Below, in pieces: positions 12,001-18,000 of a stretch of 64,000 nucleotides of DNA (the first letter of the stretch is position 1; each line of letters opens with the position of its first letter). Position numbers: made by a program. The stretch lies in assembly GCF_003018255.1 (NCBI RefSeq), contig NZ_CP027441.1; one strand, written 5' to 3'. This DNA comes from Escherichia coli. GTDB taxonomy: Bacteria; Pseudomonadota; Gammaproteobacteria; Enterobacterales; Enterobacteriaceae.

Positions 12001-15000
12001 TTCATCCGCCATAATGCGCCACCTTGTCGACTATCCACGCAGGTCCGGTGACTTCCGGCAGCTCATCGTCATCTGTCGGGGAAGACCATTCCAGCTCCCC
12101 CCACAGCACATCAACGAGCTCTCCGCGCTCATACAACTGCCAGCCACAGAAATCACAGCCCTGTTCGGCATACCAGTGCTCCAGCGTGCAGCTGAAACGG
12201 CGGCTTAATTCTGCAACAACGTCGCTTTCCGGCTGACACCACGGCGTGTCGAAATCCACCTGAATGAAGTTTTCCCCCTGACTGCTGATATTCAGGTCAT
12301 ACCCACAAGGCCACTTCACGCCATACCGTTCTGTATACCAGTGATATGCAGAAGGAACACCGTTCAGAACACCACCGTTGAAGCCATTCACTTCAACATC
12401 CAGGCGGGTCGGCAGAACCGTCAGCAGGTCAAACGGCATGGTTTTTTCCGGCAGTACGTTGTCACACAGACGGTTCCACCACACCGATACATCCTCGTTA
12501 CTCCAGAAGCCACACCAGTCACCTCTTTTTGCGGTGAAAAGTACGGTGATGGTATCCCTGACATCGTCCGGTAATCCTTCCCAGCGACGCTGTCCAGTAC
12601 CGCTCTGCAGCCAGAGTTCATGCAGCATCAGGCAGTTTTGTTCATCCAGCAGTACACCGTTCTGCAGGTGTGTCAGCCAGCGGGTGAACGCGATATTCTC
12701 CGGCGATACAACGCCACGCCCGGCAGCCGTCAGTCCGGGGCATGGTTCAAACCGCACATCTTCAGTGGTCTGCAGAAGTCCGGCACTTCCGGCCAGAAAC
12801 AGCTGAATACCTTCATTTATGGCGCGGCGATAAAACGGTGTGACGGCACCACTGGCCAGTCGTTTAATCTCAGCGATCTGTGCCAGTTCACCAGAAAAAT
12901 GCATACGGTTACTGCACCAGTTTGGCATGGGAATTCTCCTCTCACATGCGGCCTCCATCAGGCCGTGCCGGCACGTTAACCGGGCGACCGCATACGAATG
13001 CAGGTGCGGCCCCGAAGCCGCAGCGCGTGGAGGAGGAACGACGAAACGTGACCGGGTGAGGAGGCCGGCGACAGCGACACACTTGCATCGGATGCAGCCC
13101 GGTTAACGTGCCAGCACGGCCTGGGTAACCAGGTATTTTGTCCACAGAACCGTGCACAAAATGCTGTGGATAAGCTGGACACAGCACTCCACAGCAGGCA
13201 TACAGCCACACCCTCAGAGAATTGATCGTTTTTTAGTCAGAACAATGACATTTGACTGTGTGCGGATTCAGTTATTAGAACACTGTATATGCATACAGCA
13301 AAAAGAGAAGGGAGATGAGAACATGATCCGCATTGAAATTCTTTTCGACCGCCAGAGCACAAAAAACCTCAAATCAGGCACACTTCAGGCGCTACAGAAT
13401 GAAATCGAACAACGTCTGAAACCACACTACCCGGAAATCTGGCTGCGTATAGACCAGGGCAGCGCCCCGTCTCTATCTGTCACAGGAGCCCGCAACGACA
13501 AGGATAAAGAACGTATCCTGTCTCTGCTGGAAGAAATCTGGCAGGACGACAGCTGGCTGCCTGCAGCATGAGTACCGTTTATCACCGTCCGGCTGACCCT
13601 TCAGGCGATGACAGTTACGTGCGACCGTTGTTTGCCGATCGTTGCCAGGCCGGTTTTCCTTCGCCTGCCACGGATTATGCTGAGCAGGAACTGGATCTGA
13701 ACAGCTATTGCATCAGCAGACCTGCAGCCACCTTCTTTCTGCGCGCCAGCGGTGAATCGATGAACCAGGCTGGCGTGCAGAATGGTGATCTGCTGGTAGT
13801 GGACAGGGCCGAAAAACCACAACACGGGGACATCGTTATCGCTGAGATCGACGGTGAGTTCACCGTCAAACGACTGCGGTTGCGCCCACGCCCGGCACTG
13901 GAGCCGGTTTCAGACAGCCCGGAGTTCCGCACACTGTATCCGGAAAACATCTGTATTTTTGGTGTTGTCACTCACGTGATCACAGGACGCGGGAGTTACG
14001 CTGATGTTTGCACTGGCTGATATCAACAGTTTCTACGCCTCATGTGAAAAAGTTTTCCGCCCGGACCTTCGCAACGAACCGGTCATCGTACTCAGCAATA
14101 ACGATGGCTGTGTGATCGCGCGCAGCCCGGAGGCAAAAGCCCTTGGCATCAGAATGGGGCAGCCCAGGTTTCAGGTGAGACAAATGCGCCTGGAGAAGAA
14201 AATACATGTATTTTCCAGCAATTATGCGCTGTACCACAGCATGAGCCAACGGGTTATGGCTGTTCTGGAGTCGCTTTCTCCCGCAGTTGAGCCCTACTCA
14301 ATTGATGAAATGTTCATTGATTTGCGGGGGATAAATCATTGCATCTCTCCGGAGGTTTTTGGTCATCAGCTCAGGGAACTGGTAAATAGCTGGACAGGAC
14401 TCACCATGGGGGTGGGCATTGCGCCTACAAAAACACTGGCTAAAAGTGCACAGTGGGCAACAAAGCAATGGCCACAGTTTTCCGGTGTGGTCGCGCTGAC
14501 GGCAGAAAACCGTAATCGGATCTTGAAGCTACTGGGGCTGCAGCCAGTTGGTGAGGTCTGGGGAGTAGGACGCAGACTGACGGAAAAGCTGAATGCGCTG
14601 GGTATTAACACAGCACTGCAACTGGCGCAGGCTAACACGGCATTCATCCGGAAAAACTTCAGCATCATTCTTGAGCGTACGGTACGCGAACTCAACGGCG
14701 AGTCCTGCATATCCCTGGAAGAAGCACCACCGGCAAAACAGCAGATTGTCTGTAGTCGCAGTTTTGGTGAACGAATCACAGACAAAAATGCCATGCACCA
14801 GGCTGTTGTTCAGTATGCAGAGCGGGCCGCTGAGAAACTACGTGGGGAGCGTCAGTATTGTCGGCAGGTGACGACATTTGTACGGACATCCCCCTTTGCA
14901 GTAAAAGAACCCTGTTACAGCAATGCCGCTGTGGAAAAGCTTTCATTGCCACACAGGACAGCCGGGACATTATTGCCGCCGCATGCAGAGCCTTAAACCA

Positions 15001-18000
15001 TGTCTGGCGTGAAGGGTACCGCTATATGAAGGCAGGAGTCATGCTGGCTGATTTCACACCATCGGGTATAGCGCAGACGGGATTATTTGATGAAATCCAG
15101 CCCCGTAAAAACAGTGAAAAGTTAATGAAAACACTCGATGAACTGAACCTGTCGGGAAAAGGGAAAGTGTGGTTTGCGGGGCGAGGAACCGCCCCTGAGT
15201 GGCAAATGAAACGGGAAATGCTTTCTCCTGCGTATACCACCAGATGGACAGATTTGCCAGTAGCCCAGTTATGAATATGTAATCCACCCATAATATTGTT
15301 ATCTTGTCACCTTGTTATCTTGTTATCTTGTTATCTTGTTATCTTGTTATCTTAATTAATCTATAAATCAAATACTTAACAGCTTGTTAAGTTGTTAATA
15401 TAACAAAAATAATTGCATGATTCGCGTTCAGATGGCAATATTAAGTTGTTAACTTAACAACTTAATATGAGGCTATAATGATAATAGTATTAGGTAGTCA
15501 AAAGGGTGGGGTAGGTAAAAGTACACTGGCGGTATCTATAGCTGCGTATCTGATGTCACTAGGCAATAGAGTGATTATTGTCGACGCAGATGACCAGAAA
15601 TCAGTATTAACCTGGTACAACAATCGCCCTGAAGATCTCCCTCATATTCCGGTTACAGGCGCGACAGGTAACATCAAAGCCATGTTAAAGGAACACGAAA
15701 AATCCTATGATTTTGTTATTGCAGACTGTGCTGGCCGTGATAGCGCAGAAATGCGTAGTGGATTGATGGCCGCAGATGTATTCATTTCTCCTTTGCGCCC
15801 ATCTCAGATGGACCTGGATGTTGTGCCTCATACATGCTCCGTTTTTACAGCAGCAAAAGATTTTAATGAGGATGTTCGGGGATATCTCGTTTTAAACATG
15901 ACGCCCACAAATATGTTTGTTAATGAAGCCAATGAGGCAGCTGAAGTTCTTAAGGATTACCCTGAAATGCATCTGGCAAACTCCCGGGTATGTGATCGTA
16001 AAGCACATCGAGATGCTTGGGCCGAATCAATGACAATCTTTGAAACGCAAAATGATAAAGCCCAGCAAGAAATCGAAGCGTTAGTGAAAGAGGTTATTCT
16101 GTGAGAAATAGAGCAAACACTTCACCTCGTGACGAGGCAGCATTTATTAACGGTGGCACGGCTGGCCTTGATAATACCAAAAAGTCATCAGATAAATCAT
16201 CGGTTGTAAGCAAAGCAAAACCAGTGAGTATTTCTTTTTTTGAAGAAAACCTAAAAGACATTGATGCCCTTATAACGGCTGAGATGGTTTCAGGTAAAGG
16301 CAGAGTGAATCGTTCTGATGTTGTCAGGGCGGCGGTAGAAGCACTTAAAACACTATCAAAAACAGAGGTATCACGATTGATAGCAGAAGTAAAACAAAGA
16401 TAACACCTTGTTATCTTGTTATCTTGTTATCTTGTTATCTTGTTATCTTGTTATCTTGTTATCTTGTTATCTTGTTATCTTGTTATCTTCAATGTATTTT
16501 AGGATGACCTATGTTGAATAGAACCTAAAACAAAACAAATATTAATGGGGTCCGCTTGGAAAAGGGAAATTTTCCCACGCTAAGAGAATTGAGTTGAACG
16601 AGTGGTTACATCTAGGCCAGCTAACTCACTGAACGTAAAGGCTGTACGAAATGTTCCGGCCGTCCGATAACCGTTTGGCTTACTTCCGTACATTCCCTTG
16701 CGTAGATGTACAGAATTGTACGATTTCGGACACCGAAACAGCTGTTGTCCCGCCATCCTGGCGATTCCTGAAAGTCATTTGTCTAAAAAATAGTCTTAAC
16801 GTGGTTTATTTTCCGAATTCCAAGCGGCCCCCATGAGCAACTGACCCGGTTTGCGGAACGACGCATCCGGGAATGCAATCTGGACAGCCAGGGCGCGATT
16901 TATCTCTGCGAGTCAGCCAAAGCCGGAGCCGTGCTGATCTTCTGGCATGAACTGGCCATAAATGGCTATGCCTCAATGAATGCCATAAAGAGACAGGAGC
17001 TCATTGACGCCGACTTTCAGCGCCTCAGAAAGCTCATCTGGCCGGAGGATGACAGGTAATGACCCAGAGCCGCCGACCGTCGCCACTGCAGCGGAGAGTG
17101 CTGATTGTGCTGGCTGCCCTTGATGAAAAACGGCCGGGCCCCGTGCTGACACGGGACCTGGAACGGGTGCTGGAGCGAAGCGGGGAAGCCCCGGTCTACG
17201 GGCCAAACCTGCGCGCCTCCTGCCGTCGCCTGGAGGATGCCGGCTGGCTGCGCACCCTGCGCGCCCCGAATCTGCAGCTGACTGTCGAGCTGACGGACGC
17301 CGGCCGGGCCGTGGCACAGCCTCTGCTGCTGGCAGAACAGGACCGCCTCCGGGCAGAACAGCGTGCGGCAGAAGTCGTCGTACTGCCGCTGGTCCCGGCC
17401 GCAGGTCTGCCCGCAGACGGCACTTCTGCCACTGATCTGGCGGTGGAGCTGAACGGCATGACGTATCAGGCCTGCCGTGGGGATTTTGTGGTACGTCTCG
17501 ACGGCAGCACCTGTCTGCAGTTATGGAATAAAGAAGGCAGGGTGGTACGCCTGGAGGGCGATCCGCTGGAAGTGGCGCAGTGGCTGCAGGCCTGTCACGA
17601 TGCCGGAATGGAGGTTCGTGTACAGGTTAATGAAAGCGTCACTCCGTAAAAACACGCCTGTGCACGGTTTACACATCATCCCATGGTGGCAGCCGGTTAA
17701 CTTTCCTGCGCCACCAGTGGAAAGAGGCCATGCACAGTCCGAACAAAAAACCACCCGTGATACTTATAATAATGGCCTCACCTGCGACCATTCCTGACGG
17801 CCCCCAGTAGATAAACCACATTGCACATCCCCAGGAAATGCCCCATAAACCCCCCGTCAGCACCGTGACCTGCCAGAACGGCATAAAGGGTAATGGCGGA
17901 AGCCGGATACCCAGCCGCCAGAGAATACGCAGAAGAGGAGGGGCATAATTGCTCCGCCACATCTTTTTGCTGTCCATCAGGGCAATGGCCCGGGCTTTTT

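Follow-up and report, generated by a model that had tools for sequence, protein, structure and literature searches.

The closest described counterparts of the locus analyzed here are the impCAB operons of the IncI1 plasmids TP110, R64, ColIb-P9, and pTF2 and of the Shigella flexneri virulence plasmid, which share the order LexA box-impC-impA-impB. In an intact impCAB operon, LexA occupies a box that overlaps the promoter and is released upon DNA damage; RecA filaments then bring about the cleavage of ImpA to ImpA', and ImpA'2-ImpB acts as an error-prone translesion polymerase, while the DinI-like ImpC damps RecA. Both UV protection and mutagenesis are reportedly conferred by impCAB, as is said of work by Lodwick in 1990 and by Runyen-Janecky in 1999. 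For the IncI1 plasmid pTF2, SOS induction of all three proteins has been described, with ImpC up 21-fold, ImpA 9-fold, and ImpB 2-fold in an SOS-constitutive strain, and a LexA box near-identical to the one discussed below (TACTGTATATACATACAGCA; heterology index 1.60) was predicted 21 nt before impC (PMC12211044).

Within the window, i.e., the whole 64,000-nt stretch of Escherichia coli DNA that was analyzed (contig NZ_CP027441.1), we found an operon of the same order, which likewise has a DUF1281 gene on its 5' side. In contrast to the IncI1 and S. flexneri operons, this one carries frameshifts in both impB and impA as well as a mutated -10 hexamer. The operon differs from that of R64 by scattered single-base differences as well as by a divergent stretch of the last ~50 bp of impB, and it is followed on the 3' side of impB by a ParA gene with 8-bp iterons, whereas parR-parM are found at this place in R64. 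Chromosomal umuDC (DNA polymerase V) and dinI are more distant relatives: the cleavage site and the Ser/Lys dyad are conserved in ImpA, LexA regulation is common to both, and the Pfam domains of UmuC (IMS, IMS_HHH, IMS_C, and DUF4113) recur in ImpB, but the locus in the window is plasmid-borne, carries its dinI-like gene inside the operon, and is predicted to be non-functional. We consider it very probable that it represents an impCAB operon under SOS control, equivalent on plasmids to dinI and umuDC/polymerase V, which is decaying on a pO113-type plasmid of LEE-negative Shiga toxin-producing E. coli. The features concerned are as follows:

13252-13281, plus strand: sigma-70 promoter of the operon as predicted from a consensus scan (TTGACT at 13252-13257, an 18-nt spacer, and TAGAAC at 13276-13281)
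13283-13298, plus strand: LexA (SOS) box CTGTATATGCATACAG, of the form CTGT-N8-ACAG, with the 20-mer CACTGTATATGCATACAGCA at 13281-13300
13323-13571, plus strand: impC, encoding an intact 82-aa DinI-like protein (Pfam DinI, E 4e-18)
13568-14020, plus strand: impA, umuD-like (Pfam Peptidase_S24), frameshifted
14004-15274, plus strand: impB, a pseudogene of a umuC-like Y-family polymerase, with an ORF at 14004-14996 (330 aa), followed by an ORF in a second frame that ends at 15274
26138-27760, plus strand: IS66-family transposase ORF (26138-27730) and right terminal inverted repeat (27741-27760; GTAAGCGTCAACGGAGCACC)
27760-27933, plus strand: second impB remnant of the R64 (IncI1) type, comprising the last 57 codons and the stop codon (tblastn to ImpB residues 368-423; Pfam DUF4113, E 4e-20)
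27935-29393, minus strand: R64-type parR-like gene (27935-28351) and parM (28344-29393), the native 3' neighbours of impB on R64

The split of impB near 14950, which a preliminary description of this DNA had proposed, was traced to a single deletion. Alignment to the intact copy of an O91:H21 plasmid revealed that one C is missing from a CCC run after 14948, converting TTGCCCACACAG to TTGCCACACAG, and that the translation is out of frame after residue 316 and ends at a stop codon at 14994-14996, i.e., after 330 codons. While intact ImpB comprises 424 aa with IMS, IMS_C, and DUF4113 in one frame, the break in the window cuts IMS_C (the little-finger domain; residues 245-359 of the intact protein) at position 56 of 109 of the Pfam profile and leaves DUF4113 (residues 372-421) in another frame on its 3' side. 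The beta-clamp motif, which reads QTGLF when the frame is repaired, is lost with it. ImpB would thus end in the middle of the little-finger domain, and the polymerase would probably not be made. In RefSeq, the gene is a pseudogene ('umuC ... frameshifted') in CP027372 and AP027259.

The exact deletion allele, searched as a 61-mer, is present in 275 plasmid records, including pO113 (NC_007365) and pUTI89 (NC_007941), as well as in 301 complete-genome records of E. coli; PLSDB contains ~3,500 impB alleles, and about 8-10% of the sequenced plasmids with this impB segment harbor the identical knockout. The PLSDB table of pO113 lists no gene over the impB stretch, which is consistent with a pseudogene, and in RefSeq pUTI89 is labeled 'umuC frameshifted'. 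The same deletion occurs on a pO113-type and on a pUTI89-type SNP haplotype, with six differing sites between them over 347 bp, and the pO113-type haplotype also has intact impB alleles. This distribution could result from recombination or from recurrence. It is conceivable, though in our view unlikely, that the knockout arose repeatedly or spread by short gene-conversion tracts, with the loss of a toxic mutagenic polymerase benefiting the virulence plasmids of STEC and ExPEC; if true, the knockout would have been selected and would not reflect random decay. Loss of impCAB can be neutral or favourable, because the over-expressed operon is toxic (PMC10286972). RefSeq marks further genes of this plasmid region as frameshifted, too. 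On the 3' side of the impB frameshift, the window, pO113, and O178, which represent the pO113-type lineage, share the derived non-synonymous changes P359T and Q383L, and K128N is a further change found in the window alone; these changes fit relaxed constraint, although the substitutions beyond the frameshift are too few for a formal test of relaxed selection. One carrier of the deletion has its impB further disrupted by IS21.

A second lesion affects impA, in which one A is lost after 13980 (GTGATACACAGG to GTGATCACAGG, aligned to the same O91:H21 copy) outside any homopolymer (GATACAC to GATCAC). Residues 1-138 of the 145-aa intact protein are normal, while the final 7 (HRTRELR) are replaced by 12 unrelated residues (TGRGSYADVCTG), and the shifted frame extends 16 nt beyond the impB ATG. 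Relative to chromosomal UmuD, to which ImpA aligns over residues 16-139 (E 2e-36), the frameshift point lies at the position after V135, and the altered tail is equivalent to the four C-terminal residues of UmuD. The frameshifted ImpA retains Peptidase_S24 (residues 20-134) together with the cleavage site Ala28-Gly29 and the dyad residues, Ser in GESM and Lys in VKRL. With only the tail altered, ImpA may still fold and self-cleave. RefSeq (PGAP) treats the gene as a pseudogene ('umuD ... frameshifted') in the near-identical plasmids CP027372 and AP027259, and the deletion allele was found in only five plasmid records, which stem from US and Japanese collections. In pO113 and pUTI89, which carry the identical impB deletion, impA is intact.

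The third lesion lies in the predicted promoter. For the intact O91:H21 plasmid, the promoter scan yielded TTGACT and TAGAAT, separated by 18 nt and matching the consensus at 10 of 12 positions, as the sole consensus-like promoter. Alignment to the intact copies showed that the window has a T to C change at 13281, the final base of the -10 hexamer (TAGAAT to TAGAAC), and the same kind of consensus scan found no plus-strand promoter at 13252-13281 of the window. Among the aligned copies, the equivalent base is T in O91, O178, R64, and also pO113, which differs from the window in this respect, whereas a C is confined to the window, CP027372, and AP027259; the change has five full-length exact matches among plasmid records. 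The final T of the -10 hexamer is one of the best-conserved promoter bases; its loss is therefore predicted to lower transcription of the entire operon, and even impC may be poorly transcribed. The impA deletion and the -10 change co-occur in the same five plasmid records. The umuD entry of AP027259 in PLSDB had suggested a nested order, with the -10 change older than the impA frameshift, but direct alignment showed that AP027259 has the impA deletion together with a nearby SNP, so that either change may have come first.

The LexA box at 13283-13298 overlaps the predicted promoter region and ends 24 nt 5' of the impC ATG. It had been described as perfect: its conserved CTGT/ACAG core is indeed kept, but the palindrome is imperfect, and the box starts one base further left than had been given. 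One core position differs from the box of pTF2 and R64. The pattern CTGT-N8-ACAG occurs twice in the 64-kb window, compared to 0.73 occurrences expected by chance. The second copy (44470-44485) was rejected as an SOS box; it is a chance match that lies inside ehxB, as judged by collinearity with CP027372.

Within impCAB of the window, only impC retains an intact reading frame. Its product (WP_000618108.1, 'DinI-like family protein' in RefSeq) is 100% identical to ImpC of the intact O91 plasmid, and, given this identity to functional copies, the gene may be under continuing selection. This bears on an alternative to the decay of the whole locus, which we regard as rather improbable: that the polymerase is dead, while the plasmid keeps ImpC and ImpA as working SOS-regulated modulators that act on RecA and Pol V of the host. 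Apart from the intact impC, the preserved core of the LexA box and the intact S24 domain and catalytic residues of ImpA speak for this possibility, as does the intact umuD-like gene that accompanies the frameshifted impB in both pO113 and pUTI89. However, impA of the window is itself frameshifted, and the -10 hexamer lacks its final T. Moreover, in pUTI89-type plasmids, which represent the different SNP haplotype, a ClbS/ISL3 segment has taken the place of the promoter and of the left half of the box. The added lesions look like ongoing decay and not like the preservation of the genes that are left. The earlier proposal that the plasmid keeps its regulators thus holds for the reading frame of impC, but not for the frameshifted impA, and the predicted weakening of the -10 hexamer argues against it as well.

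It is highly improbable that the frameshifts in impA and impB are sequencing or assembly errors and that the real frames are continuous. Short homopolymers such as the CCC run of impB are typical sites of long-read errors, but the impB change does not represent such an error, because the exact allele is found in hundreds of independent records, including US and Japanese sources. A continuous impB frame, which had been named as the result that would overturn the proposed split, is therefore effectively excluded. The pO113 and pUTI89 sequences, which carry the impB deletion, presumably predate long-read sequencing, and the impA deletion is not homopolymeric and recurs in the five records from US and Japanese collections. 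That a regulatory -1 ribosomal frameshift at TTG-CCA-CAC restores low-level full-length ImpB is scarcely credible: while slipping back by one nucleotide after CCA would exactly recreate the wild-type protein and the allele is common (~8% of plasmid records with the segment), the site has neither an X-XXY-YYZ slippery heptamer nor a run of A or T for transcriptional slippage, we know of no stimulatory structure there, and both the derived non-synonymous changes 3' of the deletion and the IS21 insertion in one carrier speak against it.

Decay of impCAB is the reading we favor, and it includes the second copy of impB. The umuC-type 3' remnant that had been noted beside an IS66-family element (at 27765-27932) was confirmed and spans 27760-27933, where it abuts the right inverted repeat. 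In CP027372, RefSeq labels it a 'DUF4113 domain-containing protein, incomplete, missing N-terminus'. The homology to impB-parR-parM of R64 begins at 27760, the end of this repeat, with 99.2% identity over 1645 bp through parR-parM, and the native 3' context is kept. A search that allowed up to 3 mismatches to the right repeat yielded no left inverted repeat. Judged by this junction, the second impB is an IS-truncated remnant, cut by the end of the IS66-family element, which would have trimmed an R64-type gene to its last 57 codons. The remnant is a different allele from the frameshifted gene, and the loss of two independent copies, as previously suggested, is a fair reading. The same two-copy layout is found in pO113 (two places per record).

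As for the order of events, the impB deletion would be old, being common to pO113, whereas the small sub-lineage of the window would then have acquired two more lesions, the frameshift in the impA tail and the -10 change. In this scenario, the locus would consist of pseudogenes that drift under relaxed selection, on a plasmid without a translesion polymerase. The three lesions, their occurrence in databases, and the domain content were observed directly, whereas the lost polymerase activity, the weakened promoter, and the relaxed selection are inferred.

A decayed impCAB operon is an ordinary finding, and public annotation already marks its genes as frameshifted. Its significance lies mainly in correct annotation: an SOS-inducible mutator polymerase should not be ascribed to the plasmid, and the 'umuD' or 'umuC' matches that gene-content screens yield for pO113- and pUTI89-type plasmids represent pseudogenes, with the qualification that impA itself is intact in pO113 and pUTI89. 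The identical knockout may serve as a mildly useful marker for tracing plasmid lineages. Furthermore, the locus illustrates how often plasmids can do without their translesion polymerases.

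The plasmid SOS mutagenesis operon impCAB spans 13252-15274 of the window in its textbook form, with a LexA box ahead of its three genes, as the preliminary description had stated. The motif CTGT-N8-ACAG has 2 matches in the 64 kb window vs 0.73 expected by chance, the second falling inside ehxB. The corresponding features, together with a second, partial impB, are as follows:

13283-13298, LexA box, CTGTATATGCATACAG
13323-13571, impC, intact, 82 aa, Pfam DinI
13568-14020, impA, Pfam Peptidase_S24
14004-15274, impB, Pfam IMS, IMS_HHH and IMS_C, with DUF4113 in the second frame
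27760-27933, second impB remnant, last 57 codons, R64-type sequence

The window represents a pO113-type plasmid of LEE-negative Shiga-toxin E. coli, containing ehxCABD, sab, an IncFIB-type replicon and an IncI-type transfer system, and its closest records are CP027372, CP027451, CP027453, AP027257 and AP027259. Since the first 27.8 kb are only 99.2% identical to CP027372, the window stems from another plasmid within the group. Furthermore, CP027372 harbors two tandem IS66-family elements (ISEc23 and a second) ahead of the impB remnant, whereas in this stretch (25261-27765) the window has a single one and is ~2.56 kb shorter.

Alignment to pO113 and to the copy of an O91:H21 plasmid, annotated with three intact genes, revealed exactly two indels in the operon besides a few SNPs. 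In impB, one C of CCC is missing after 14948, a deletion shared by pO113. With this 1-bp deletion, ImpB keeps its first 316 residues, adds 14 out-of-frame ones and stops about halfway through the little-finger domain (IMS_C, residues 245-359), short of both the C-terminal DUF4113 and the clamp-binding motif, which reads QTGLF once the frame is repaired; the polymerase is dead, as had been proposed. A private substitution in this dead gene, G->T at 14387 (ImpB K128N), was found in no other copy compared. The accompanying claim that the plasmid keeps the regulators holds for the impC reading frame, but impA is itself frameshifted and the -10 hexamer carries a T->C change, so that the regulators are not simply kept. 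The observation is confirmed, while its interpretation is partly right and partly wrong. Specifically, one A is missing from impA after 13980 (GTGATACACAGG -> GTGATCACAGG), a deletion absent from pO113. ImpA residues 1-138, including the S24 domain, the Ala28-Gly29 cleavage site, the GESM Ser and the VKRL Lys, are unchanged; the frameshift converts the tail HRTRELR to TGRGSYADVCTG, and the break maps after UmuD V135, four residues short of the UmuD C-terminus.

Intact copies have a predicted promoter, TTGACT-18-TAGAAT, which is assigned from the consensus and ends two bases before the LexA box core. The -10 hexamer of the window reads TAGAAC (T->C at 13281), and the scan used for the intact copy found no + strand promoter at the operon start in the window. 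As the upstream gene is divergent, read-through transcription could not substitute for the predicted promoter, and transcription of the operon is probably reduced. In addition, AACTGAATCCGCACACAGTC at 13254-13273 (- strand), overlapping the -35 hexamer and spacer, is one base off a weak second LexA site predicted on the IncI1 plasmid pTF2 (heterology index 13.49; PMC12211044). In pUTI89-type plasmids and a Klebsiella plasmid, a ClbS/DfsB gene and the ISL3-family element ISEc53 replace the sequence upstream of impC; this replacement (~4512-5165 of L005, the pUTI89 sequence, equivalent to window 13231-13286) removes both promoter hexamers (-35 and -10) along with the LexA box's left half, so that SOS control is lost there besides impB.

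The recurrence of the same alleles across public records effectively rules out that the frameshifts are artefacts. An exact 61-mer with the impB deletion occurs in 275 of ~3,465 plasmid records having this segment and in 301 of the 2,845 complete-genome records of E. coli, with carriers including pO113, pUTI89, pRS218, pUM146 and Klebsiella plasmids. The exact wild-type 62-mer was found in 1,144 plasmid records, a count that omits intact alleles with a SNP inside it. The impA deletion and the -10 T->C change are confined to the same five plasmid records. This distribution, hundreds of records vs five, indicates that the impB deletion is old and that the lesions in impA and the promoter arose recently within a small sub-lineage. 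Nor are the lesions new, since public records contain the same alleles and already give them as pseudogenes, with RefSeq listing "umuD ... frameshifted" and "umuC ... frameshifted" in both CP027372 and AP027259. In a pangenome study of ST95, "UmuC" and "DUF4113 domain-containing protein" appear as two distinct plasmid gene groups (PMC10783064), the outcome expected if an ORF caller meets a split gene such as that of pUTI89.

The pUTI89- and pO113-type impB sequences differ by six SNPs within 347 bp, yet harbor the identical 1-bp deletion (window 14948; L005 2560-3830). Intact pO113-type alleles exist, e.g., the O91:H21 copy, while the pUTI89 haplotype was found with the deletion in ~230 records and intact in only one short 9.3-kb record (CP069491). 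The deletion may have passed from one haplotype to the other by short-tract recombination between plasmids sharing a host, or it may have occurred more than once.

That there are two distinct impB copies on the plasmid was borne out: the R64-type remnant has its own parR-parM context. The segment from 27760 is 99.2% identical to the IncI1 plasmid R64 over 1645 bp, on into parR-parM, and retains the R64 order, in which impB is directly followed by parR-parM; the homology starts precisely at the IS66-family element's right inverted repeat. The full-length impB has a 3' end unlike that of the remnant, and downstream of it come a ParA gene and 8-bp iterons, an arrangement shared with the O91:H21 plasmid. 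These repeat arrays (TTGTTATC; 15296-15353, 7.2 copies, and 16407-16489, 10.4 copies) flank the 208-aa ParA gene (15478-16104) and a 100-aa ORF (16101-16403) and probably supply a partition module with its centromere-like site; in the O91:H21 plasmid, the first array has two repeats fewer (16-bp gap at 15296-15311). Paralogous backbone segments (16833-18111 vs 32917-34193) are 96% identical. Further diverged direct duplications are 1111-1608 vs 7269-7768 (88%) and 2297-2649 vs 9042-9394 (94%). The arrangement suggests a hybrid of two related backbones, each bringing its own impCAB, which would account for the two impB copies.

Intact copies show LexA-dependent induction: in an SOS-constitutive strain, ImpC, ImpA and ImpB rose 21-, 9- and 2-fold, respectively (PMC12211044). 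Over-expression of impCAB is toxic (PMC10286972). By homology with UmuD'2C, ImpA'2-ImpB would be an error-prone translesion polymerase, and the DinI-like ImpC a damper of RecA. The window cannot yield a polymerase, and its ImpA has a rewritten tail, with transcription probably lowered. We consider a pseudogenised operon under relaxed selection the best reading of the sequence. P359T and Q383L, derived non-synonymous changes that lie past the frameshift in the pO113-type lineage (window, pO113 and the O178 copy), are consistent with this, as are the window-only K128N and several neighbouring genes likewise flagged as frameshifted. RefSeq pseudogenes in CP027372 include a frameshifted ParB/RepB/Spo0J gene by psiB and ssb, a frameshifted TonB-dependent receptor and yagA fragments (window ~4550-6320, 22080-24050 and 20680-21580, positioned via the collinear CP027372). 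Gene decay is thus general on this plasmid and not peculiar to impCAB.
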